A stretch of 61,181 nucleotides of DNA, the filler included, from Dugesia japonica (lineage: Eukaryota): the NCBI GenBank assembly GCA_001938525.1. It is 6 parts of 6 records of this genome, joined end to end, with 100 filler letters (N's around TTAATTAATTAA, not from the genome) between each part and the next. Parts side by side here need not be neighbours in the genome. Positions count along the whole stretch, not along the records: positions 51,781 to 61,181 come from MQRL01470820.1; 5 more parts are not named here. The stretch is one strand, 5' to 3'. The position numbers and the translations under genes are program-made. This document shows, one piece after another, positions 1,991 through 61,181 of this stretch. The stretch's first letter is position 1, and each line of letters starts with the position of its first letter. The notes beneath the pieces are model-generated. The model was not told the origin of the DNA. It worked only from the letters and a program-made list of their open reading frames with translations, and ran no database searches.

Positions 1991-2769
1991 TCCATTCAAT
2001 GGAACTCTGCAGTCTGCAAAACAGCCGTTCAAAGTAATTTTTATATATTTTAACTTGACATTTATTACATTTTAACAGGATTTTCTGTTGTAGACAAAAA
2101 ATGCATAATTAAAGTTTACAAAGATAGTTGAAATTTGAAATCCGTCAGTGAAATTCTAAATATGAACAAAAAATAATTATTTTTTCTAAAAAAATATACT
2201 TTTCGCGGTTTGTTGCAATATTATTTAGTAGTTGCAGTAAGAATTTACTGCTTGACGTACTTTGCTTCAAGTATTTGTATTTATATATCTATATATTCTA
2301 ATAAACATTACGTGTTTTACTCTTTAAATGAGATCATTTGACAATAACTATCTTTGAAATAATTTCTGGTTGAAAATAGTATAACAATAATAACATGTTT
2401 GTAATTTCATTAAAATAAAGAAAAGGCTTCGATCAAAAATAATAAAATTTCTTTGTATAGAAATTCAAATTTTCGACAATTGTCTTCTTCAGAAACCTGA
2501 TGACTTCTTGATAGATTCAACACAATAGATCTCTGTTACACAATTCTTTAGATTTTATCGAAATTTTATTGGTTTATTTTAATTATGAATTTTAATTTTC
2601 AATTAAATCTCAAAGTTTTTTTAATTAATTCAAAAAGTCTTTTTTGATATTTAAATTTTAGTTGTGTTTTAAATTAATTTTCAAAAATTGACATCGACCA
2701 CAAATTTATTATAAAACATTATAAAACCAATGTTCATGTACAACTGCCTTTAAAGCGGCATAAATACAG

Positions 2770-3215
2770 TTATATTATGCACTATTTATTCAAACAAATT
2801 GTTACCTGCGAAACAACGTCACCACATGAACTCAAACAAGTAGCTGCCTAACATACTTTTAGCTGTACCAAAGTGTCTTCTGTTCCTGCTTTTGGCGTAG
2901 TTCCATGAGATTTCAATATTCTGCGTATGATAACCTGTCATGGGATCAACAAAATTTTGAGAATGGTTGACAGTTAGATGTTTGTAGCCAAAGTTTTGAA
3001 TACCACTATAGGATGGTCACATATCCGATATAATAGTTGTTACTGGAAAAATTGCATTCTGTATAATTGATAACAATATTGCTGCAGATCTATCGGATAC
3101 TGTATATAAAAAACATTGTTTGGTTTCTCGGCAAATTCCTTCAAAAACCTATTGAGTTGGGAATACTTGACCAACATTGTTTTTTTGACAGCTAAACATG
3201 CTTTCATCTATCTAT
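2770..3215 (-). mobile_element. Merlin / ISXO2 (IS1595-like) DDE transposase remnant
   Basis: Manual translation: IDESMFS..VFEGICRETKQCFLYTVSDRSAAILLSIIQNAIFPVTTIISDM*PSY..HLTVNHSQNFVDPMTGYHTQNIEISWNYAKSRNRRHFGT..SYLFEFMW; internal stops. Confidence 0.9.
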
Positions 3216-4739
3216 ACCCATGTACCTATGTGCATATGTAGTAGTACCTATCTAGTAAGTGCATTAACCTATTTTTAACTGGCTAATTGCTGTTCCAAAT
3301 ATGTAGCTAGTGTGTGTTACCAATTATTGAGTTATTTGAGATTAATTAATAATTTTCAAAAAAATTGCGGGGAAAAAGTGGATAAGCACCGGAAATTTTG
3401 TAGAAGTTATATTAGACAGTTTCTTACAAATCAATATTATATAATTCCCATAATATTTCATTACTGTACTAATCTATTTATTAAAAAGTTTCGCAACAAT
3501 TCAAAAAATATTTTTGTGGATGCCCATGATTTGTAAACCTCTGTAATCATAACATATCATTTGATTTTTATTATTAATAAAATCAATTTAATTAAGATTT
3601 TATTAAAGAAAAATCCCATAGAAGTATTTCTCAAAATTATGGCTTCAAGAAGAGAATATTTTTTATTTGTAGAAAATTTAAAGTAAAATAATTGAAAAAA
3701 ATAGTTTATTTTCATTTAATCAAAAATCATGTAAATATATTTTTCAAATAAAATAAAAAATATATTATTATAATAATTGTTCAGTCATGTTTTTGGTTGA
3801 TATTTGACTGGATTTTTTAGTTACAAAAAATGCTAGACAAAATTTTAATCTATTCTTTTTCAATTTCACAAATATGAAATATTACCGATCGGTAAAATTT
3901 TGAAAAACGATATTCTAATTTAAAGTGAAAAGTTATTTATTTAAAAATATCTAGTTGTAATTGACATTCGCTCTACCAGAAAATTTATTGATTTATTTAT
4001 GGCCAAATTATTCTTATTAATTACCTTATTGATTTATATTGATTTTTCAATAATTATTTTTTGAATAAGTATGTTTGCATGTAAGGTTTTATCTTTCTTT
4101 ATTATTACTTGAATTATAATTTATAATTTGATGTACTACTGTTGACAAAAAGTAAATGGACTTTTTATTTTAAACTCGAAAGTCGTAGTCAAAAATGTTT
4201 CAGCCTTTAGTTAAATTTGCTATTAATATCAATTTAATTTATACATACCTTTGATATTGTTTCTTTGTTCATTCGAATAAATTTTTGACATTCGATTTTT
4301 TAAATGGGTTATATATAGTACTAGTGCGAGAATCTTATTCACGAGTCTGCGCGCTTTCACTACTCACCTTATTATTTTTCGATGTTTTGTTACTTATTAT
4401 CCACTTATCATTATAGTAAATAGCAGTAAGTTTTAGCATTAATCCATTTTTGTTAACAACTGCAAAATTAATTTCAAAGAGTTTCTCTGTTTAAGTTTTA
4501 AGTGTTTCATTATAATTTATGTAAATAATGTATTAATCGGATTGATGCCATGGCGCTTGCCTGTGGCTTAGACTTTGAAGACCCGCTTACGCCGGTTCTG
4601 TTTATATATTTAAGAACACTAAATTTTGTGTAAAATAAAATTAATTAAATACACTTTAAAATTATGCAGAAAGCATTTGGTAATTTATCACTATTGAGAA
4701 AAAACTACATTCAATTGATATAAGCTCGTCAGAGAAGAT

Positions 4740-11340: not shown

Positions 11341-11791
11341 CTAAGTATTTTCAAGTAAATTAAAGAAATCTGAAGTAATATTATTCACATATCCCTGAAA
11401 ATACAAATTTTTAGTCCAAGTGTTACTNNNNNNNNNNNNNNNNNNNNNNNNNNNNNNNNNNNNNNNNNNNNNNNNNNNNNNNNNNAGGAAATAACCCTGG
11501 TTTGAACAATCAGTTGACTATTCTTGCTAATTTATACAAATTTATTAAAACTCCCATATTTACGATAATTTTTAATGATTGTAATTGTAAATTCTTTATA
11601 TCATAGGGTTTCAAATCATGCAGTTCCAATGGTTTCTTACAACCCATTATTCCGCATTTTCCTGATCTGAAGAATATAATTGTATATTTGTCACTTTTGA
11701 CTTTGAATTGACATGGTTTGGCAATAGGTAAACTCATTTTCTTTGTTACTTCTTGCGTCACTTTACCTCGGTAATTAATATTGGTTATCAT
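11341..11791 (-). pseudogene. Compact TATA-binding-protein-like gene (~150 aa, two TBP repeats), disrupted
   Basis: MITNINYRGK..YTIIFFRSGKCGIMGCK (TBP LIFxSGKxxxTGAK)..LQLQSLKIIVNMGVLINLYKLARIVN*LFKPGLFP (YEPELFP), 58-nt gap, then VTLGLK; in-frame TGA at 11510 and a probable frameshift near 11410. Confidence 0.8.
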
Positions 11792-12277
11792 AATTAATGA
11801 ATTTGCTGAGATACTTTTGGGGATTATTATCACAATAAATCATCAGTGCGTGAGTTTGAAACAATTGATTTTAATAAACATAATAATCCCAGTATATTAT
11901 CGTTATAATTTTTCATCTTATATATCTTAATATGTTTACTATAAATAAAATTATATTAATAAATATGCTGGGTTGCTAGGCTTTTTTATGTTGTTTTAAT
12001 ATTCGATTTTATTGCTTTTAATTTCATTCTCTTAATCATAACTGCTTTCTCTTTCGATTATTTGTACTGTCCGGGGGATGACACCTAACAACCACAGAAA
12101 TTTTTGGTACTCTCTCTAGTAACACGATCCCCCTTTTCCCGGTTCCAGTGGGACTACGCGGTATCCAGTCTTAGTTTTCAATTTCGTTGAAGTCTGACTC
12201 TCAAATTGTGGATGTTATTGTTCAATAATATACTCTTTGAATACAACACTTTATGAATAAACTTTATTTCATAACAA

Positions 12278-22353: not shown

Positions 22354-22635
22354 TTAAATGAAGATTTTTGAGTGATTTTGTGTGCTGAATGTAACATGTT
22401 TTGTTTCTTTGGATAAATGGTATGGTTTGGTTCTTCTCAGGTTGACTTTTGTTTCTTTTTCATCAATAATTAAAGTTGCGACATCTTTTTCAACTTTGAT
22501 TAATTTATATGGGCCTGAGTATTTTGATTCAAAGCCTTTTGCGAAAGATTTTTTTACTAATGCATAGTCTGTACTGAGTACTATTTTATTATGGGGTTGT
22601 GATTTGTTTTTCTTTAGGATACTCTTCATTTCCAA
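22354..22635 (-). mobile_element. Gypsy integrase C-terminal GPY/F module remnant
   Basis: FESKYSGPYKLIKV...VNLRRTKPY. Confidence 0.75.
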
Positions 22636-23649
22636 TGTTTTCGTTTTGCTATTCTTGTTTACTGTCTTTCCTGTGTCTGTTCTTTTATTTCCTTTTATTT
22701 TTGGAATTATTGTTTGTTTACCCCATATTATTTGGCTTGGCCTTTGGTTATTGGTTGAATTTGGGAATATTTGCTTTGTTCATCGTTTTTAATTGGCTTA
22801 ACGTCTACTCAAATTATTTTAATTAATTTTATACACCTAGTTAGTTTAATTTATTTTCTTATTCATCTTTCTTTTTTAGCTTTATAGATTATTTTCTTTA
22901 AAATATTCTCTCATAAATTATTCTTTTCATAAATTCTCTTCATTTTTAAATCAGTGTTTCTATTTTTTACTGTTTATTATTAGTTGTATTCTATGAATGC
23001 TTGTCATACATTCCCTCCTCAAATAATTTCGTTTTCTTTCTATGGCTCTAATTTGACCAAGAGATTGAGAGGCATTCTATTTATTCAGGTTTCAGAATCA
23101 TAATTTATTTGATACATTTGTTTGTACATCATTGGAAATTCAGTTATTTTATTTAAGATTTATTTAAGTAGATATATAATAGTGCTCTGTGTTACATAAT
23201 AACCACATTATAGTTGCGTAATCAATACATAATGATTATGTAATAATCACATAACCACATAATTATGAAACACCTGTTACGTTTTATTATGTAAACATCG
23301 GTACGTAGCGATGCTACAGCATTACACAATCATCGATTTATTACTCAATCACAGCGTGTCAATAACACAGTCACTGTGTAGTAATCACGTTATTATGTAA
23401 TTACAGTTTACCGATGAAGTAATCACGGGGGGTTTATTTTANCACCATTTTTTGATTAAATAATCATATCACCTGTATTCACCTGATGTTTACGTAATCA
23501 ATGCAAGTAAATAGATGTGAGCGCATAAGATCGCCCCCACCCTAGCGAAAAAACATAACTGATCTGAAAATGTGAGCTAATGGTTATCGTGGATTTTGAA
23601 TTTTAAGATTTTTGATCGGATCAAAAAATTTTATTTTTTTTAATGTTTT

Positions 23650-47177: not shown

Positions 47178-50100
47178 GTAAGTTGTTATTTCATTTATGA
47201 TTTCTATTTAAATTTTGAAAAATATGAATGTTTCATTTTAAAATTTTTCATATTTAATTGTTGAATTTCATTGATTAAATTTGTTTTAATTTTAAAATAA
47301 TAAGGAAAAATTACCATTTTATTTTATTTTAACTGTCTAATTAAATAGAAAATCCATTTTTAAATTGAAAAATACATTAATTGTTATTATTTTCAAGTTA
47401 CAAGAGTTTTCTATCAATTTTTAATAGATAATAATATCGATTTTCGATAAGAATCTTTATAATATTAATAATGCCAAATATATACTAATCGTTGTTCATT
47501 AGATATATAATGGTACAGAATAAAAAAAAATAATCCATTTAATTCTATTTGATAAATTAAATTTGTTTATTTGAAGTTAATACAACACATTACAATTTTA
47601 TTTTTTTATGGAGTTGTTAATGGTCACATTGATTAAGAAAAATTTTATTTTTCAAAGCTAATTTATCAAATTTAAATTGTTTGTTTTAATTAATAATTTC
47701 AATAACATCGACAATAACAATTGAAAAAATTAAGTTTTTTAATGATTTAAAATTTTTTCATTCAAAGACTTCGTACATAATAAATTCTGTCGATATTTAT
47801 GGCGTTTAATAATTCATTAATAATAATAATAAATCTTTATTAAATCTCCAGACATTTTCATTATTACCAATCTTTTCATCAAATTGCATTTTTCAGCATT
47901 TCAATTAGCAGTTACGAAAATTAAAAAATACATTCTCCATCTTATGGTAGTTGTTAACATCATTATTAATAATGAATTTATCGTTGTAAAATGTAATAAA
48001 ATAATTATCTAAATCGATAAGAACGTAAAATATAACTAGATAATTGAAGTCAATTTTCATTAATATTTTCATTCATTCAACTACTAAGATTTCATAACTA
48101 GTATTATTTCAAAGTACTGTCTCGTATTTATTTATATTCTAGTATCATAGAAAACATTAATCGATTATATTTATTAGTTTTTTAATACAAATTTCATATT
48201 AAATTTTCTCCTAATTGCATTATTTGATCATTTTTCTATATTTAATAATTTATTCAATCGTTGAAATTCTACTTTTTATATTATATTTTCAGTAATTTAT
48301 CGATCTTAAATATTTCAAATATTTTAATANNNNNNNNNNNNNNNNNNNNNNNNNNNNNNNNNNNNNNNNNNNNNNNNNAAACAAAAACTAAACAAATAAT
48401 GTAGAAAGATAAATTGATCAATGCTGGAATATTTTTATCATATCAACTGTAAAGTCAAATAATTACTTTAGAAATCATTTAAATATGAAAAATGTGGTAT
48501 TGAATGTTTATTTTGATTTTGTTAAAAAAAAACTTGGAATTAATCTTTTTAAATTATAATTGAAATAATTTCTCACTATAAATTTTCAACATTTTATTTC
48601 TAGAATTTTTAATATGAAATTCAATTTGTTTAAATGATACATTGGTTTCATTTCAATTTACCATTTCTCTGATTGAGTACAACAATGTATTGATACATTG
48701 CAAATGTCATAAATACCGAGTTCGCCTACATTTCTGCTTTTTGTCTGAATCAAAATACGTTAAGACTTTTTCACNNNNNNNNNNNNNNNNNNNNNNNNNN
48801 NNNNNNNNNNNNNNNNNNNNNNNNNNNNNNNNNNNNNNNNNNNNNNNNNNNNNNNNNNNNNNNNNNNNNNNNNNNNNNNNNNNNNNNNNTTATTATTATT
48901 ATAATCATTTAATACATCAATTTTAATAAAAAACTTTTAAATAATGTTATATAATAATATATTTATATTAAATTCATTTGAAAAATTTACTTTAAAAAAA
49001 CACATTTTCAAAATAAAATTTATTTAAAAAAATCTATTATTGTTAAAAATTGAAATCGATTTCTCAAAAAAAAACAAACTCTAATTAATTTTCATATATC
49101 AATACTGAGAGTAAAGTAATTATATTTCATTACTTCTTTTGATCTTAGTGATTACAAATTTGTCAAAAAATTGAGATTAATTGTAAACTTATTTAAAATA
49201 TTTGTATGTAATACAAATCAGGAATAATGAAAGAAAAAATGTTTTCTTAATATGTTTTATATTACTTTTAATTAAATTATTTGTTTATTTGAAACAAAAT
49301 GTTATTAAATAATTTATTGTTAAGATATTATTGTTAATTAACTTTGAGTATTGGTGTCTGTCAACATTAATATTAGAATATTAAAATACAATTAATCTTT
49401 GTTTAATAAATTAAAATATTTAATTAAATTCAAAGTAACGATTAAAATGCTTTGATAAAAGTTTTTAATTCAATGAAATCTTATATACGATCAATGGTTA
49501 AGTCCAAGAATTATTATCGCAAAAATTGTAATTGTAAAATAAAAATAACACTGTAACCTCTTGCTTCTGATTGATTTCTGATTATTTTCACAATTTTTCT
49601 CATTTTGCGCTTCCTCAATTTTTGTTTTCTATTTTTGAAATTGAAAAAGAAATAAATCAATTTTATTTGTAATTAATTATAATATAATTTTATCTGTCTA
49701 TTCAGAATTCCAAATTCAGCCATTTGTTTCCTGATTTTTGTTGTACTTTTTATTCTTGATAGTACATTTGTTTTTTGATAAATGTTTTGAAATCTTAAAG
49801 GATTTGGTTTTATATCATTTTATTTTATAAATACTATATAATTTGGTAATAAACAATATAAATATTATAATAATAAGCGATCTTTTATTCAATAAGTGTA
49901 ATATTCTTGTTTTTTTATAAAAATTTATTTTCTTATACAAAAATGCATGTATATACATACATATATGCATGTATATATGCTCTATAATATATAAATAATA
50001 ATAAAATCAAATAAAATGTGAATAGTATTTATTGACACAATTATGAGATTTTACAAAATAAAACTGAAAATCCTGGCTGTAAGAATGATTCACAAGTTTT

Positions 50101-50760
50101 AAATATCTTGGAAATTTTTTTATATTTTATGTCATCAGATTTTGAGGTTCTGAAATTTTTATTGGATATATAAAAAAATATTAAGTTATAAATTAAGTTA
50201 TATAATATATAATATAATATATAATATATAATATAATATAGTAATATATATATAAATAAATTTATTTTGTACTTACCATAGAAATTATTTATTTTTTTGA
50301 AAGTGTTTATTTTTTGGCACCTCAGAATCCGGTCACATATTATATTAAAATTTACATTCAAATATTTACATTCAAAAAAAATGTACTTAAGAGATTTTTA
50401 AAAAAATTTAAAAATTTTTACAAACAAATTAATTTAAATAATTTGTATATATTATATTAAGTAAAATTATAAAAGTATAAATAATTTAAAAGAAATTATG
50501 TAGAAAAATGATTAAAAATATAAATATTTTGTAGAATTAAAAATTGATATTTTTAAAATATTTTACTCTAAATTTCTCAGATTATTTGTTTGAATACTAT
50601 GGATTGTTCTTCGTCATTTTCACTTTAATCAAAAAACTTGTGATAATAAATAAAAACTTATGGAGAGTTGTGGTGTTTTATCTTATTAATGCAATTATCT
50701 TATTATTCCAATTAATAATCAATTTTCAAATTAAATATTAAATTAACATTTAGTTTAAAA

Positions 50761-51659
50761 ATGAATCAAGCAAAAACTTCAAATAATTTCAAATAATAAT
50801 TTAAAAGTGGTAATTTCAGTGTCACAGAAAAACAAAGTCTTAGTGCTACTAGAATATGCAGCAATGAATACTTGAAACGATTACTCTTTGATAATTCGGT
50901 ACAGACACAGACGGAGCTTATAAAACAATTGGAAATAACTCATCAAACTGTTTCTATGAGTAAGATTCAAAGAGAAAGAAAATAGATCTTGTACGATCTC
51001 AATCCAACAAAAATCAACGAATAGAAACCTAATTTTCTCATCTTAATAGACAGCGTCAAAAGTCATTCTTGTGAAAAATTGTGACGGAAGATGAGAAATA
51101 GATACAATATAATAGTTAGAAACGCAAAAAATCATTGGCAAATCCCGGAAAACCATGAAAATCGACTGTAACGTCTAATGGTTTCGGAAAAGAAGTAATT
51201 CTCTGTATCTGGTGGGATATTAATAGCGTGCAGTATTATGAGCTATTGAAACTCGATGAAACAGTTACTGCTGATTGCTACAAATACCAATTAATCAAAT
51301 TATGTTAACATTTGGAGCTGAAACGTCCGTTTAGTTGAAAAGAAAAACGTCCTTTGAAATTGTTGCATGACAACGCTAGGCCACATATTGCTTCAAAGAC
51401 AAAGGATACCATAATGAAACTTGGCCGAGTAATCTTGGAGCACTCAGCGTATTTACCAGATATTGCCACAACTTATTATCTTTTGTTTCAATCGTTGCGT
51501 ACCTTGTGCGATACACACTTTCAATCAATGGATGATATCTGAAAATGGCTTGATGGCTTTATTGAGTTCAAACAACCAGAACTTTTTCAAAATTGAATTC
51601 ATCTGTTGCCTGTAAAATGGCTTAAAGTTATCAATAACCACGTCGATAACTTTGATTGA
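50761..51659 (+). mobile_element. Mos1-like mariner transposase pseudogene
   Basis: FKSGNFS, IVTEDEK*IQY, VILCIWWD..YYELL, LLHDNARPH, HSAYLPDIATTYY (YSPDLAPSDY-like), WLKVINN. Confidence 0.95.
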
Positions 51660-51681
51660 AATATTTGTGTCACTTTTTTAN

Positions 51682-51780: not shown

Positions 51781-51836
<56 letters not shown>

Positions 51837-52236
51837 ATATTATTATGGGTGCTTACTAGATATCTGTTAAAAGTTAACGATAAAGAAGGAATCACAAAAT
51901 TAGGTTAATATATCTTAATATATCATAAAAAGCTCTTATTAATTAATAGTTCAAAATCATAAGTAGCCTCTATTTATCGGAAACGATAAATCCAAAAGTA
52001 ATTTTTTGTCCATTGTTATGTAATAAGTTTATATATGCTTTAACATAACTTTACTACTAAATGGAAATCATCCAGCATAATAGCATTTTAGAATAGTTTA
52101 CTGATAAAAGAAATTATATTACTGATAATTTTAGTATTATTGGTTAGAAATGAAATACTAATACTAAGAAACGAAAGGTTAAGTACTGCTAAACATAATA
52201 GCCGTTATAATGATAATTTACAATTTTGCTTTCAGG

Positions 52237-52842
52237 TTATGAGTATTTTGTGGTACCCGAAATTTGCTGAATTTGGCTCTTATAATATTGGTAACTTTTA
52301 TCGTATTTATTTAAATCTGAGTTTCGGTTTTTTATTTTATAATTTAATTCTAAGTATACGTTTTCTGTGTTATATTTTATCTTATGACTTGCATTTGGAC
52401 TAGAACTTTTTATTTTAGAGAATGTTATAGATATTGATTTTATTAAGTTAGTAGTAGATTTGGTTGTACTTGTTTCTGTAGGTATTTGTTTCCATAAGAT
52501 ATATTTTGGATATTCTGGAAATGTTGTTAGAGTAATAGTTTCCAAAACGCAAGCTACCCAATCAAAACCGCCAATCCAGTTGGCAGTGATGTAATATTTT
52601 ATATTGGGTTCTAACCCATAAAGTTCAACAAATCTTGTTTTATTGCTGATTTTAGTCCCTACTACTACGAATAAGTAGGTAGGTCCATAAAACCTTTTAT
52701 GCGAAGGAATTTTAAATGTGAATTGGCGTGGATATATGCCTATTTCTACTATATGCCAAGATAACGTTCTATGGGATAGATACGTAAATCTGCTAAACAA
52801 CTTGTTATGATTGCTAATAATATTACTAACATGATTGTCCAT
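52237..52842 (-). CDS. Accessory ORF downstream of integrase: FN3-like domain plus Ser/Thr-rich stalk
   Basis: Longest ORF in the window (201 aa); TLSW...VELYGLEPNIKYYITA resembles the FN3 LxGLxPxxxY signature. Confidence 0.55.
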   Translation of the reverse strand: MDNHVSNIISNHNKLFSRFTYLSHRTLSWHIVEIGIYPRQFTFKIPSHKRFYGPTYLFVVVGTKISNKTRFVELYGLEPNIKYYITANWIGGFDWVACVLETITLTTFPEYPKYILWKQIPTETSTTKSTTNLIKSISITFSKIKSSSPNASHKIKYNTENVYLELNYKIKNRNSDLNKYDKSYQYYKSQIQQISGTTKYS

Positions 52843-52868
52843 GAATTTTGTGATTGTGATCTGAGATT

Positions 52869-55800
52869 CTATCTATGTGGTTTCTGAGTTATTGGCTCTG
52901 TTTCTGCTAGTTTACATCTATTGATTACAAATATAGTAGGATCATTATTTTTATTTTTAACTATTTGTAAATTCGTGTCCGTTACTTTTACTACATCAAA
53001 GCGTCCTTTAAAATATCTAGCTAGATTGTTTGTTAGACCTTTCTTTGAATTCGGAGTCTTTATTCGCACTTTATCTCCAACTTTAAATTGATGTGGTTTT
53101 GCATTTCTGTCGTAGTAATCTTTATACTGTTCTTGTTTGAATTTTATTCTCAATCCAGTTTGTTTATACACTTCCTGTAGTCTTTCCTGAATTTTCGTAA
53201 CATATTCCGGATTGTCCGTATATTGTAACACAATAAGTTTGAATGTGACACATCGGATTATGATTCTCTCTCAAGTACATTAAATAGAATGGTGAATATC
53301 CAGTAGCTTCATTTTCTGTCGTGTTGTTGGAAAATAATGCTGGTTTAAGGAACAAGTCCCAATCATTTTTATTTTTGTTTACAAATACTGATAATCTGTT
53401 ACATAATGTGCGGTTGAATCTTTCCACAAGACCGTCTGACTGTGGGTGGTATGCTGAAATGTTTATTTTTTAGATGTTAAACATTTCATTAACTCTTTTA
53501 ACTGTTTCGCTTAAGAAATTTCTACCTCTGTTTGATAGCAATTTTTTGAGTGCGCCATATTTAAAAATAATTTTTTATACCAACAATTTTGCGATTACTT
53601 CTGCAGATTCGTCTTTTGTGGGAAATGCTTAGGCCCACTTTGTAAAATAATCGCTGAATACCCAAATATGTTTGTTAAATTTTATTGTAGTTGGTAATTT
53701 GCTTAAGAAATCCAGAGCGCATATTTCCATTGGTGGGCTTGGTACTGGCATTGGATGAAGTGGCACTTTTGTTTTTGTCCCAGTATTTTTTCTAGTTGCG
53801 CATATTGAACAAGCTCTACACCATTGCTTTACATCATCTTGCAAATTTTGCCAAAAATATTTTTGTAATATTCTAGATGCTGTTTTACTACTTGATAACG
53901 TCCACCAAGAGCACCATGATGATATTGAAGAAGTAACATCTGTTTTAAGGAATCAGGTACAACCCATAAGTTTCTCCCATGTTATCATATACAAGTAAAT
54001 CCTTATATATTTTATACTTTGTATTTTTGTTAAGGTGGTTTCGTATTGATTTGATGTTTTTATCTTTCTTTTATACATCCGAGAAAGTTTTATCATTTAT
54101 GCCTTCAGTTATTATAGGCATTGATTTTGTTGTTTCCACCTCTTTTATGTTAGGAATTCTTGATAGTGCATCGGCATTTCTGTTGGCTCTTCCAGGTTTG
54201 TATTTAATTTTTATATTCATATCTTAGATTTTCATAGCCCATTTTAATATTCGGCTGGATGTATCCTTGTTTTTCCATAAGCCTTCAAGTGGTTTATGGT
54301 CTGTTTGTATAGTGACCTCTGTTCCATAAATGGTCGGTCTAAATTGTATAAACGCATAAATGTATTGCGCAACACTCCTTTTCTATTGTTGAATATCTAG
54401 GTTCTGCTTCTTTTAACGTTTTACTTGCGTATGCAGTTACGTTATCTTTGTTTTTCTCTTCATGTCCAAGAACTGCTCCGACTGCATATTCACTTGCATC
54501 TGTCATGATTATAAATGCTTTGTCAAAATCTGGGTATCTCAATATTGGCGCTGTTATTAATTTTTCAATTAACGTATTGAAAGCGTTTTGCTGATTGTTT
54601 CCCCATAATTTTTGTAATTTTAATGAATTTTCATTGATTTCTCGGTAATTATTACGCCTTTACTTTCTTCTTTAGTTTTCAAACCTTTTGTCAGTTTCAC
54701 TAGTGAGGCAGATATATTACCAAAATCCTTTATAAATCGTCTATAATAATCGACTAGTCCTTTATAACTTAGGAGTTGTTGTACTGTTTCTTGTATTGGC
54801 AAAGTTTTTATTGCTTCTATTTTATCTGGATTTGGTTGCAAACCTTTTGAGGAAACTATACGACCTAGAAATATTACCTGTTCTTCCGCCCATTTGAATT
54901 TTGTTGGCTTTAGTTTTATATTTGGGTTTTTGTAATCTACACTTCATAGTTTATTAAATGTTACTCGAATGATTCTGATGCGATCAAAATGGCATCCATA
55001 TAGATAATTACATGTTTTACATCTATCAAAACTGTGTTCATTAATCTCTTAAATGAAGCTGGTGCGTTTGTTAAATCGAATAGCATTCTTGTAAACTCGT
55101 ATAAACCATCTTCTGTTACAAATGCAGTCTTTTCTCTATCCTGTAATAACACATTTAGACCATAGAAATGTTTGCTGGCGTCGAATATAGCAAACCATAA
55201 TGCTTTACTTAATTTGTTAAATTGCTCCTTGTATCTTGCTTAGTAACATCATTTAATTTTCGATAATCTACGCACATTCTGATATCTCGATCTTTTTTCT
55301 ATGCTGGTACTACTGGTGATGCCCATGGAGAGAAAATTTGTACTATTATTCCATTATCTTTTAATTCTTTTATTTGTCACTTGACTTCCTCTCTTAATTT
55401 ATATGATGCAACATATGGCCTTTTCCTGACAGGTTTGGCGTTACCAGTGTCACTGGCATGTTGTATTATATCTGCTTCACCAATATCGAATTCATGTTTT
55501 GCTAAAACATCCTAATATTTATCTATTACTGCTTGTAATTGTTTTCGCTCATGCGCTGTTAGATTGCTATTAGTTATTTTAGTCTTATCTGTTTGTTTAA
55601 TTCTGTTTGTTTAGGTTTAATTTGATCGTAAATTAGTGTTTCCTTTACTATTTGCTTTTGTTTTATTGGATTATTTTTATTAAATGTAATTTCATTTATC
55701 TCACATTTCTCGTTTTTTACATGTAGTTTACCTAATTTCATACCTTAGAAAAGATTAACATCTTGATTATTATAATTGGCGATTCTAATAGGCATGGTTT

Positions 55801-56350
55801 CCTTTTTTGGAACAAAACATTCGAGTACTATTGATATATTAAATTTTTTCACTAATTGATTATTTGGTTCAAAAAAATAGATATTTACGCTACGGAACCC
55901 TAATTTTACAGGCATTATACATTCACGTGAATATTCTATTTTTGTATTTGACTTTAAGTATAAATCATTTTTTGCTTTTTCATCATTTGTGGGGGGTGAT
56001 TTTGATAATTTATTATTTTGTAAATATATAACATATCCTGATAATTTTGACAGTAAATCCATTCCCAAAATTTAGTCTTGTACCTCTTGGTCTACGACTT
56101 GGAATGAGTGTTGTATATTTTCATTTTCTAAGGTAATATTGCAATATATTATATCCTTTATGGCTCGTGAATGATTTTAATTCCTCTGATAGGCTAGGAT
56201 CAAGATTATCTTTTTTTTTTGTTAAGAAATGTCTTTAATTATTAAGCATGCTGATCCGGTGTCTATTAATGAAGGTATATTATATTCATTTATTGATATT
56301 ATCATTGTGGGTGTGGGAGTATCTCCATTTATTACATATATCTCGTTTGA
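52869..56350 (-). mobile_element. pol: Gypsy pol pseudogene (protease - RT - RNaseH - integrase)
   Basis: LIDTGSA (56252-56263), SPWASPVV, RMCVDYRKLN, EKTAFVT..LYEFTRM, YMDA (mutated YxDD), TDASEYAVGAVL, NADALSR, CRACSIC, HPQSDGLVERFNRTL, FKGRF. Confidence 0.97.
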
Positions 56351-56499
56351 TTTTTGAGGTGTGGTATTTCTTATTAATTTTTCGTTTTCAAGGTTTGATT
56401 TTAATTTATTGACTTTATCTGTTTCTGATATATAAGGTTTTATTGTCGTAATTATTCAGTTCTATATTCTCATCTCTATTTGATAGATCGATTGTATAT

Positions 56500-57440
56500 G
56501 TTTGATTTTGTCTTTCTAATTTTCTGATTTTATCATGGTGTTTTTGCATGATTAGATGTTTTACAATAAATGTACATATGCATGCTGCTAGTTTTCATGT
56601 TGTACCAAATACTGAATGCAATTTTCTTAATGATAATAATTGATGGCATGCTAATTTTAACAAAATAAACAAATAATGTATTAACAAAAAAACGAAAATA
56701 CACTGCCTATTGCTTACGCTTTGCCTAAACATTTATCGATAAAACTTTGTATGACTCTTTTGCAGTGATCTACGTGCAATAATTACTCGAAGTTGAAATC
56801 GTCTGCTTGGCTTCCTTTATGAATTCTATCGATCATTATTGATATTATTTTTTTTATTACTATAGGAAACAGAACATGCTTTCTGGATTTTTCTTTCTTT
56901 CTGAGTAAATATGCCGGTATTTTCCATGTTGTATTGTCTGTCAAATACCATTTTCCTTCAGAGTTCCATCATCTCTAATGTTACTGATTTTTGTGCTGTT
57001 TCACAATCCGAAGCGGTAATCCAAACGTTGTCGTTTATTTTGTATAATGGGTCGAGAAGATTACTACGTTTGTTCATTTCTTTGGGTTTATAATTTTCAT
57101 CTGTTAGAATTCGTGTTACTGGTAATAAAAAGACCTTTTTATTATTATGTATCACTGGCAGTTCATTTGTACATTCCGGATGATCTGTTAAAGTAACTAT
57201 TGCTAATTTACATTTGAAAGTTACCAATGCTTCACCCACAATTCTTCCAAAGGTTCCTGCTTCTTCGAATAATAATGGTGTCATCTCGAATAGTAGCAGC
57301 TAATGCCATTTTTGTACTTAACCGTTCTCTATTTATTTTACAGTCACTTGATATTGTTTCATCATATAATTTTTCCATTTGATATATCAAATTGTGATAT
57401 GCAAAATCAAGTTTATTGTTTAAATATGAAACTTATTTGA
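56500..57440 (-). pseudogene. env: Class III fusion glycoprotein (herpes gB / chuvirus G-like) envelope, C-terminal half, located between gag and protease
   Basis: YLNNKLDFAY..DCKINRERLSTKMALAA..GTFGRIVGEALVTFKCKLAIVTLTDHPECTNELPVIHNNKKVFLLPVTRIL..PLYKINDNVW..NTGIFT..LFP, then a hydrophobic AIGSVFSFF membrane region. Confidence 0.8.
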
Positions 57441-57499
57441 TGTCCAATTTTTTCTGCTTGATCTTTAGAGCCTTTGATGAGTTCATTAGATATATTTAA

Positions 57500-59617
57500 A
57501 CCGTTAAAGTTGGTTTTCTTTACTGCGCCTGGTGGTCTACCTCTTGATCGTCTTGTAGTTTTCTCATTTGAAGGTCCTGGTTCATCTGTATGTCTTGATT
57601 TCTTTGGTTCTGTATTTCCGTTATATTTTTTAATTGAACTGATTGACTTGTATTACCATTTCTTATTTGAGCTTGTTGATTATCTACTGGAGATTCTGGT
57701 TCTCTAGATATTTTCTTCGGTGGAATATGTATCTTTTCGTTTTCATCTTTTATATCCTCTAATATATCTTGATCCAGAAGATCGATTATTCCATTCATCG
57801 CTTCCTGCTGTCCCTCAGATAATTTATTTACTATCTTGAATTTCACTTGGTTATCGTTTTCAGGGATAATTCCGTATTCCATTATTCTTTTATTTTCAAT
57901 TAACTCCTGATTATAGAAATACAATTTTATCTCGTCGTCTTCTACTAATGTTATCGGTCACTTTGCTCTTATTATCTTTCGTAGTTTTTCCGTTTTAGTA
58001 AGCGCATATGTGCTTATTATTAGAGCTTTTATATTACAACTAACTGTGGATGCTTGTATTATTATGGGTTTCTGCCACTGTGTTGGCTTTAACAAATTCG
58101 CTATAATTCTTTATTAATTCATTTATTAATTTATGACTCTCATCGAATTCTCTTCTGCCTTTTACTTTTACTAAGGAAATTATTAATGTTTTCAGTTCGC
58201 GATAGCTTATGAGATATTCAATTATATCATTTAGGTATTGTATCAATCTAAGTGCGTTTATATTCTGTTTAGTCATTTCATGCTTTAAAATTTTCCAACA
58301 TCGACTTTTGTTTGCTTTCATCTACTTCCTCACCTAAATCTACTTTAATTGATTCGTAAGTGTTTATCTCATATTTACTTTTATTTTGTTGTCTTTCCTG
58401 CATTCTTTCACATCTGATGCGTAATTCTTGTAATTCCGCTCTCATACTTTCGTATTCATCGTTTTGAGCTACTTCAATAACATTTAAGCTTTTTGTCTCA
58501 GATTCAAATGATACTTCTTTCTTTATTATACTTCTGGGATCTCGCAGCTGGATTCGGCACACTCTGGCTAAGTGTCCACATTTGTTGCAGTTATAAAATG
58601 TTATCTGTTCTCTGTTATTTACTTGATCTCTCCGTTCGTTTGAGTAGTTACTGTTATTTCTGTCATTATAGTTCAACGTGGACTTATATTATATCTATAG
58701 TTTGATTCAGATTCTCTTTTAGGTCTATATCCCTTATTTTTAAATCTAGGGCTAGAGTTTTTGTAACCTCTATTATTATTCCAGATTTTCCTTTGACTGG
58801 AATTTCTATTCATATAACCTTTCCCCGGCGTATTTGTATATTCATAATAACTCGTTGGACTTAAATTTCTATTATATTAATTTTTTTTATCCATATAATT
58901 ATTTTTGCTATTATCTTAGTGAATGTGATATGCTCGTTTTATATAACCCCATTATGTCGGTTTTCTATCAGTCGGCATGCTTGTTTCTATGGCATAAATT
59001 AGTTTATCTTTAGTTTTATGATTATAATTTGTCTCAATCCTTCTGGCTTTTGTCATCAACTGTTCAATATTTTTGTACTCCACTGTTATCAGAACAGATT
59101 TTATTTTTCTAAGTTTTCTTCTCAGGAATTAATCTTCTATAACATTTTCAATATTACCGCCTTCTCCAAAGGTCATTTAAGATAATTTTTTTAAAATCGT
59201 ATAAATATTCACCTAAAATTTCTGTAGTTCCTTGCATCCTGTTTTGAAATTTTTGTGTACATATTCTTTCTACTTCTATGGGAACTTTTATAAGCTTTCT
59301 GAGCTCTTTTATTAGTTCGTTAAAATTCTTCGATGGATCTGTTAAATTTTTATAACTTTGCAGTGCAAAGCCCTTTAAATACAATGGTACCATTTAGCCA
59401 ATTCCTCATTTGTCCAATTGCATTTTATTAAACAGATGGACATTTCTTCAAAATATTCATCGAACTCTTCGGGTTTCCTGGAATACTTTTGTAATAGTAA
59501 ATAGTTCATTTTATTTCGATCACCAAATCCAAATAAAGGAGTAATATTAAAACCATTTTCTTGTTCATTTATATTTTCGCTATCTTTACGTCCAATTACT
59601 ATGTCTCTGCTTCTCAA
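57500..59617 (-). pseudogene. gag: Gypsy gag (capsid-like, zinc knuckle, long coiled-coil/disordered extension with AT-hook-like RGRPP)
   Basis: KYSRKPEEFDEYFEE..W..LYLKGFALQSY..FQNRMQGTTEILGEY; FYNCNKCGHLARVC; RSRGRPPG near 57525-57550. Confidence 0.85.
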
Positions 59618-60113
59618 TTTATATATAATATTATCGTTTGTATCAATTGTTTGTATTCTATATTATGTTCAATTTATTTTAACTATTTGTGTTTGTGTAA
59701 GATTTTATATATTTGTAAAATTATTAAACACACAACTATATGAAGAATTTAAAATCTTTATCAAATGGAAAATATTTACCCGTCATTTTAGGTTCTCAAA
59801 GTTTCCGCAGGTTTGTATTCTTTTATTTAAACTTTATACGTTGGGTTAGGAACTATCTGTGAATTTCGTTTCAATTCACAATTAAAAATGTTTTTTCAAA
59901 ATTCAGGTTTCGTTTCAACCCTTTAAAACTGTATTACTTTTAAAGAATTTACTCGTAACTTATACAAAAGGTTTTTATCTTATCTCTTTTTATCTTATCT
60001 TATCCTTATTTTTTTTAAAATTTTATTCAAAAATCTTATATGGGAATTTTGTTTTAACTCTGAATACTCAAATACTTTTATCGAATTAATTTATAAATTT
60101 TTATAAATTGGTT

Positions 60114-60130
60114 CCTCACTTGGGGCACCA
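60114..60130 (-). promoter_or_regulatory. Primer-binding site complementary to an elongator tRNA-Met 3' end
   Basis: TGGTGCCCCAAGTGAGG lies 4 nt after the LTR end ...TCAACA; resembles the complement of CCUCAC...GGGGCACCA. Confidence 0.75.
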
Positions 60131-60134
60131 ATTT

Positions 60135-60800
60135 TGTTGAGATGAATTCGGGATTATAGCGAACCCAAGTCAACAGTTGTGTGAGCGTTTTAGTTTTGAT
60201 AAGATTTTATGATAATCCCAGAAGAAGTATAATAACTGATATGATTTTCTATGTAACCTTAATATAGTTAATATATATGAATGAGATCAATACAAATATA
60301 CTATATAGTCAGCCATTTAATAAATAATGAATGAATTACTTTTAAAATTTTATTGGTAACTCAAATTAAAATTATACAGCGGAATTATCAGTTCAAGTAA
60401 ACTTCGACTTCACTTGAGATATCTAAAAGTTGGGTGAAAAAATGTATTTTACCACTCTATTTATACTTTTTCCAGAACATGCAATTACCTTGGAGAAATA
60501 ATATATTTTATAAAAATAACTAATTTTACAAAATAAATATAAACATGTGTTTTAAAAATAACATATTTTATTAAATAAATAAAAATTGTTTTATTTAGAA
60601 AAATCCATAATTATTATAAAATTTACCAAAAATAAAGTTTAGAATAGTAAATAAATAAATTCCTTTTTACATTGATTTATAAGTAAATAAACTGATTCTT
60701 CATAATAAATCAAACCAATTGGTTTCTTTACAGTTGAAAATTGATTTTTTTACAATCGACTATTTTTGCATAATAGATCAAACAAATTGATTTCTCTACA
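60135..60800 (-). repeat. 5' LTR of the env-bearing Gypsy element (outer boundary uncertain)
   Basis: CA end adjacent to the PBS; TATAAATA at ~60458-60465 and AATAAA at ~60349-60354 on the minus strand. Confidence 0.65.
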
Positions 60801-60879
60801 ATCAAATATTGGTTGAAATAAATAAATTGAAGCTGGTTGTTTGAAGAGAACTCACTAAGATGAGGAGAGAAGAAATTAT

Positions 60880-61098
60880 ACTTTAAAGATTTTCTGAGAT
60901 AACGACAATAAATGTTTATTTCACCTTATTCAGAAATTCGGTGGTATATTTATAGCGTCGAGGTATATTTATGGACACACAAAGAAAATGGTATATGAAC
61001 TAAAAGTGGTAGGTGATCCAGTTGTACAACATTCTCGGCAACAACCAATGCATTTAGAGAGGAAATTTGAATATATGATAAAGAATCTAGTTAACATT
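60880..61098 (+). mobile_element. Second Gypsy RT N-terminal fragment, opposite orientation
   Basis: GHTKKMVYELKVVGDPVVQHSRQQPMHLERKFEYMIKNLVNIGDISKCN. Confidence 0.75.
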
Positions 61099-61114
61099 GG
61101 TGATATCAGCAAGT

Positions 61115-61181
<67 letters not shown>
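61097..61181. repeat. (AAT)n microsatellite; others at ~17323, 20926, 26145, 27100, 41995, 51781
   Basis: Pure AAT/ATT runs, mostly adjacent to N gaps. Confidence 0.98.

Follow-up and report, generated by a model that had tools for sequence, protein, structure and literature searches.

The window analysed is a stretch of 61,181 nucleotides from Dugesia japonica (assembly GCA_001938525.1; six parts joined end to end, filler included) and consists of AT-rich, repeat-laden animal-type DNA (GC 17–34%). Its last part (positions 51,781 to 61,181, from MQRL01470820.1) carries on the minus strand a decayed LTR retrotransposon extending from about 60,130 to 52,216, or about 8 kb as it stands. The element is a Ty3/gypsy retrotransposon with the order GAG-ENV(gB-like)-POL. 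The order of its pol domains is that of gypsy elements, gag lies upstream together with a primer-binding-site-like sequence (the gag match being weak and the latter likeness covering nine bases), and a class III env lies between gag and pol, as in GAG-ENV-POL errantiviruses of the gB type (PF24664, E=1.5e-13). The copy is a dead member, probably 3'-truncated, of a high-copy GAG-ENV-POL gypsy family.

A probable 5' LTR remnant (60131–60450, minus strand) was recognised by multi-copy depth upstream of the primer-binding-site-like sequence, with a summed depth of 877 in 60138–60433 and 196 beyond; its outer limit is approximate. The primer-binding-site-like sequence itself (60114–60130, minus strand) was read from the sequence, and its first nine bases correspond to 3' ends of tRNAs that PMC13524379 (supplement 1) gives as Met_CAU or "others". 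The gag gene (58280–59662, minus strand) lies in pieces. It was located by open frames, by a Pfam Retrotrans_gag match that falls short of the curated cut-off (E=0.0056) and, near 58,570, by a CCHC knuckle recognised visually. A family-shared coding stretch (57530–58320, minus strand) separates gag from env; it was defined by a multi-copy depth of 2440–4143, and Pfam and PDB searches with it gave no match. Within this interval a broken frame at 57793–58068 (minus strand) appeared ubiquitin-like by eye, with no support from Pfam or PDB, and an AT-hook-like RGRP occurs near 57,540. Burro elements contain a Ubi2/SUMO-like domain, according to the portion of PMC6431247 consulted.

The env remnant (56640–57520, minus strand) comprises the C-terminal half of a gB-like (class III) protein and a transmembrane-like hydrophobic window at 56702. 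It was matched to PF24664 at profile positions 309–459 with E=1.5e-13 (57299–56961) and 3.4e-5. The N-terminal half, including the domain I-II part that bears the fusion loops, is missing from this copy. By eye, the start of the remnant resembles the last part of the domain I-II block in the six Schmidtea elements of PMC13524379, supplement 2. A probable deletion junction was noted at 57450–57530, where DNA and RNA reads diverge from the copy within 57450–57526 and the N-terminal half of env is gone.

The pol region (52872–56450, minus strand) encodes protease, reverse transcriptase, RNase H and integrase. Its domains were identified with Pfam (RVT_1, RT_RNaseH, Integrase_H2C2) and by blastx against four full-length Pol proteins, and the protease motif was recognised by eye only. 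Over 898 codons, pol is interrupted by 14 breaks (8 stops and 6 changes of frame), about one per 64 codons, in agreement with the original prediction, which had described the genes of the element as broken. About 170 codons (55570–56100, minus strand) separate the protease from the reverse transcriptase, and one piece of them was without Pfam match; a dUTPase-like domain occupies the interval between protease and reverse transcriptase in Burro and rotifer elements, as far as the literature consulted in part describes them.

Family-shared sequence ends at 52210–52220. Summed depth across about 52,216 is 214–276 above and 16–25 (single-copy level) below, and A-T skew changes from -0.32 in the element to +0.09 beyond. 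Because depth falls, strand skew is lost and no 3' partner of the LTR was found by blastn within the window, the copy is probably truncated near 52,216.

Behind pol, a stop-free minus-strand frame of 211 codons (52872–52240) encodes 201 aa from an ATG at 52842. As originally predicted, this ORF is uninterrupted, and no other N-free open frame in the window is as long (the second reaches 145). The TLSW and LYGLEPNIKY strings and the T/S-rich stretch for which it had been singled out are all present in the translation, with an S+T content of 38% over residues 124–165 and 48% over residues 130–160, together with two N-glycan sequons. None of 500 base-shuffles of the element reached the length of the frame (maximum 202), and the frame is therefore coding-derived. 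For its openness, the null was a decaying coding element broken at the rate of pol, rather than a base-shuffle. At one break per 64 codons the median longest open gap in the element is about 250 codons, a longest gap of at least 182 codons arises somewhere in the element with P=0.89–0.93, and two breaks within 211 codons are ordinary (P=0.36). The openness of the frame is the expected outcome of chance decay, an artefact that carries no information on domestication; the frame had been presented as exceptional for being still open in a dead element, and this does not hold.

The codon at 52869–52871 (minus strand), previously read as the integrase stop after which the ORF begins, is indeed a stop here, but it is peculiar to this copy: it differs in 22 sister contigs (8066 of 8109 summed depth) and in 10/10 RNA reads. 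Directly behind it, in the integrase frame and off the frame of the ORF, lies a Met-led signal-peptide-like stretch (52790–52832, to 52838 as a hydrophobic stretch; minus strand), of which the first ~19 codons of the ORF are an off-frame reading. The stretch was called from a hydropathy test and its in-frame ATG, and not with SignalP; it has the highest 12-residue hydropathy of the element (2.99), a value reached by nulls with p=0.0015 (0.15%) in frame and 0.012 in any frame. The signal-peptide frame and the frame that follows are separated by a break at 52780–52790 (minus strand). An indel near 52,785 was present in one sister contig per DNA run in 3/3 runs and accounted for about half of the spanning depth, which is small (42–67), and one 433-nt, 96%-alike sister contig crosses 52,785 ungapped as a counter-example. 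The break may thus be shared with close relatives. Sister copies might conceivably have a stop of their own within the 12 codons that precede the Met. The 201-aa frame is a broken gene, not an intact one.

After the break, the frame reads through a predicted FN3-like beta-sandwich of about 95 residues (52504–52788), an S/T-rich stalk-like segment (52378–52503), and, as it reads in the frame of this copy, a polar, basic tail with the stop (52237–52377; all minus strand). Hydrophobic frames at 52080–52230 had been noted as following the ORF. They lie mostly beyond about 52,216, outside family-shared sequence, and the hydrophobic window there was matched by 16% of nulls and by 20% of 182 window tiles. 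The candidate transmembrane stretch (52201–52145) reads in a different frame and lies beyond what the family shares, with a chance of 0.16–0.20. The suggestion to look for a signal peptide and a transmembrane segment was accordingly borne out for the former, in the integrase frame, and not for the latter, none being found within the family-shared sequence.

Sister copies were compared in public runs of the same organism, comprising 3 DNA runs and three RNA runs (6–25% read). Summed DNA depth, which is not copy number (single contigs are at about 10), reached thousands over pol, 614–1440 over the domain core (52582–52703) and 98–276 over stalk and tail, so that the module is several-fold to hundred-fold below pol and only some relatives align there. 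In the stalk region (52355–52506), sister contigs skipped 78 bases in 3/3 DNA runs, and 82 bases were replaced by 31 in one; such length differences are weakly compatible with the keeping of frame. A sister contig aligned to 52249–52569 had 40 differences and 6 gap letters. Sister copies contain the module region, as the original prediction required of a conserved feature, and it is a feature of the family, not a host gene.

No expression of this copy was detectable in the three RNA runs (6–25% read), where reads at least 99% alike to it numbered 1/58, 0/508 and 1/70, and the proposed expression check thus came out against the ORF as a host gene. Relatives are transcribed at a low level in one RNA run. 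In run X9, depth was 1.6 over the domain and 7.5 over pol, with a strand bias of 3.9:1 that gives no sense strand, the protocol being unstated. It was also proposed that the host had kept the ORF open, as a domesticated gene. This reading is largely refuted and we regard it as very improbable: no open frame in the window is longer than the ORF, and a region chosen beforehand would stay open for 182 codons with a probability of only 0.05–0.06 (5–6% of the time), but a longest gap of such size is expected (p 0.8–0.9), the frame is without its signal peptide, near-identical RNA reads are all but missing, and the near-fixed differences from sisters in the domain, 4 among those listed, are all at codon positions 1 or 2.

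For the fold, ESM neighbours were obtained at 0.85–0.87 with the whole frame and at 0.90–0.92 with the 95 residues after the break, and every named cluster was fn3. This evidence is moderate, with shared-feature counts of 144–159 where 170 is typical of true family members, and a value of 0.9 was reached by 4–10% of shuffles. The translation contains the strand-B Trp and the Leu-x-Pro...Tyr corner that together form the FN3 motif. Single-sequence AlphaFold models were poor (pLDDT 31 and 38), and Foldseek returned nothing with both of them. A wide structural search with the domain model gave 24 chains at Z 2.0–2.6 (best 2.6), of which 5 were titled fibronectin-type; about 10 further chains among the 24 are FN3-built receptors, and many of the weak neighbours are FN3 domains of cytokine receptors. 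The same search with the full-length model was discarded, its top matches being unrelated. Pfam gave no fn3 (PF00041) match for the frame. Against a profile built from 30 bacterial FN3 domains, the frame scored 1.6 bits (p ~0.02), aligning at the Leu-x-Pro...Tyr corner only, and the score range of the frame was reached or beaten by 61/3000 shuffles and by 3 unrelated window frames. From its sequence and models, the domain is probably FN3-like, and we do not file it as a member of Pfam fn3. Structure prediction had been named as the check on the FN3 call, and its outcome was mixed, the low model confidence and a best Z of 2.6 standing beside many FN3 chains among the 24.

Homologs outside this organism were sought in protein, viral, prokaryote and metagenome collections, and none was found. 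The whole frame had no homolog among proteins of near length, and the domain had none among longer proteins. PDB sequences gave no significant match, and PHROGs and plasmids gave nothing. A search of 1.84 billion proteins produced one match, a repetitive T-rich protein to which the stalk aligned in 20 weak pieces, and this was rejected; a 25-residue match in viral contigs and a 12-residue match in prokaryote genomes were taken as chance. Searches of viral contigs with env, and of metagenomes with the integrase tail, likewise found none. Among 194 relatives of the integrase, the best 120 (44–61% identity) are without a hydrophobic C-terminal extension. Downstream sequence of at least 1.2 kb was available for 46 of 79 metagenome gypsy loci, and 0/127 frames there matched the fn3 or fusion families; these loci are mostly chromodomain elements, too distant to bear on the module. 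One integrase relative, P0013, is 36% identical over the integrase tail and runs on for about 90 residues after a basic motif of similar kind. This continuation has a W..GIY stretch that recalls how the present domain begins, although blastp gave no significant match.

Weak or blank profile and fold searches, the lack of outside homologs found, and a module depth several-fold to hundred-fold under that of pol are what would be expected if the sequence were a lineage-specific beta-rich extension with a fold other than that of FN3, or a piece of captured host sequence that rides along as a passenger without function for the element. Fast divergence would likewise lower the depth, however; FN3 is indicated by the ESM neighbours and the structural ones alike, and signal peptide, domain and stalk are ordered as in a secreted protein. 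Such an extension or passenger is, in our estimate, quite unlikely.

Signal peptide, beta-sandwich and S/T stalk follow one another as they do in secreted or surface proteins. We judge it an even chance that the family encodes behind its integrase a module of predicted signal peptide, FN3-like domain and S/T stalk that enters the secretory pathway and serves as a surface adhesion accessory. The original prediction of a captured FN3-like surface protein is upheld to the extent that an FN3-like secretory accessory is supported, with moderate evidence for the fold, any membrane anchor being hypothetical. Working copies would read through from the integrase frame to the signal peptide, where host signal peptidase would cut the module free of Pol. 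Read-on in the Pol frame with release by signal peptidase, as against a separate ORF starting at its own Met, is given slightly better than even chances by analogy. This view draws on polyprotein-borne surface proteins, namely those of Atlas (PMC9094657) and Burro (PMC6431247), as presented in the available portions of both sources.

A separate fourth ORF, beginning at its own Met and encoding a secreted family protein without an anchor, would instead act on the host, as a decoy receptor domain or as a modulator of matrix or signalling, with no role in entry. The Met does open the hydrophobic stretch, the family-shared sequence is without a transmembrane stretch, and many of the weak structural neighbours are cytokine-receptor FN3 domains. 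Sisters, however, lack the stop at 52869–52871, and neither a splice joint nor a local RNA excess was seen over the module in the RNA runs, at low depth (X9). Stalks of S/T type are found more typically on proteins with an anchor, which also counts against an unanchored product. Planarian Burro elements carry host-modulating domains, as the consulted part of PMC6431247 describes, in keeping with such a role. A fourth ORF of this kind, with a soluble host-modulating product, is the chief alternative, though unlikely on balance.

Under release from Pol, the stalk would be O-glycosylated and would lift the domain off the membrane, any anchor would be located in the part lost from this copy, and the protein would help producing cells or particles to stick to target cells before gB-like fusion. 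An adhesion role ahead of fusion is suggested tentatively, by the architecture, and we hold it with some doubt. Further still, a two-part surface apparatus may flank pol, with the gB-like fusogen upstream and a captured attachment protein of FN3 domain and mucin stalk that signal peptidase would release from the C-terminus of Pol. Rhabdovirus G and GP64 are examples of related class III fusogens that act alone, and a partner for the gB-like env is therefore not required; we consider the two-part arrangement improbable. If it were true, the module would be the missing partner for an errantivirus gB. The mechanism of entry of gB-carrying errantiviruses is stated to be unknown, and herpes gB needs partner glycoproteins, in the part of PMC13524379 consulted. 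A secreted or surface module encoded by the family beside a gB-like env offers a concrete candidate for this question, and surveys that score gag, env and pol only would miss the module or file it inside pol.

GAG-ENV-POL errantiviruses with HSV/gB-type ENV have been described from Nematoda, Bryozoa and Platyhelminthes (Chary and Hayashi, PMC13524379, consulted in part). The present element shares with them a Ty3/gypsy pol preceded by an env of class III, gB/chuvirus-like, that lies behind gag, whereas chromodomains are the only domains named behind their integrase in the portion available, and the copy here is dead and truncated. The words "fibronectin", "FN3" and "immunoglobulin" have 0 occurrences in the main text of that article, as far as it was available. 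Giant planarian gypsy elements (Burro/GYPSM1; PMC6431247, in part) likewise have env homology between gag and pol, and Burro carries many accessory domains in its polyprotein. Burro exceeds 25 kb, unlike the element here (~8 kb), and the domains listed for it act as regulators inside the cell, with 0 occurrences of FN3 in the accessible text of the same source. In Atlas virus and nematode belpaoviruses (PMC9094657, in part), surface proteins are encoded behind pol without a change of frame, as is proposed here, and a separate pair of attachment type and fusion type has been described. These are BEL/Pao elements with a class II GN-GC envelope, unlike the present element, and the FN3-like topology in Atlas belongs to the fusogen, as its domain III, rather than to a module of its own, according to the same portion. 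Small extra membrane-linked ORFs of gypsy elements, sometimes downstream of pol, are known from sORF2 of the MDG1 group (PMC11952523) and ORF3 of rotifer Vesta (PMC5408684), both sources being consulted in part. These ORFs replace env and look fusogen-like, whereas the present element has both a gB-like env and a putatively secreted module with a predicted beta-sandwich. Elements of this type, and additional membrane ORFs in gypsy elements, are thus already known, and an FN3-like module behind the integrase is undescribed in the literature searched; no report of an FN3 module behind a gypsy integrase was found there, subscription papers, Repbase entries, eLife figures and full Pol sequences lying outside this scope.

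Several minor features were noted elsewhere in the window. Adjoining the truncated end of the element, a decayed transposase at 50750–51660 (plus strand) was recognised by eye as Tc1/mariner-like from its motifs; two pieces of it were blank in Pfam. A 141-codon frame at 22354–22779 (minus strand), without Pfam match, resembles by eye the integrase C-terminus of a second gypsy remnant. A TBP-like fragment (11510–11839, minus strand; E=0.00094) and an endonuclease VII-like fragment (25165–25494, minus strand; E=0.00048), both below the cut-off, are possibly remnants of a large DNA element. A dispersed family of ~55–120 nt is present between 1700 and 49560 in at least 9 copies and in both orientations, with one copy at 49437–49558.
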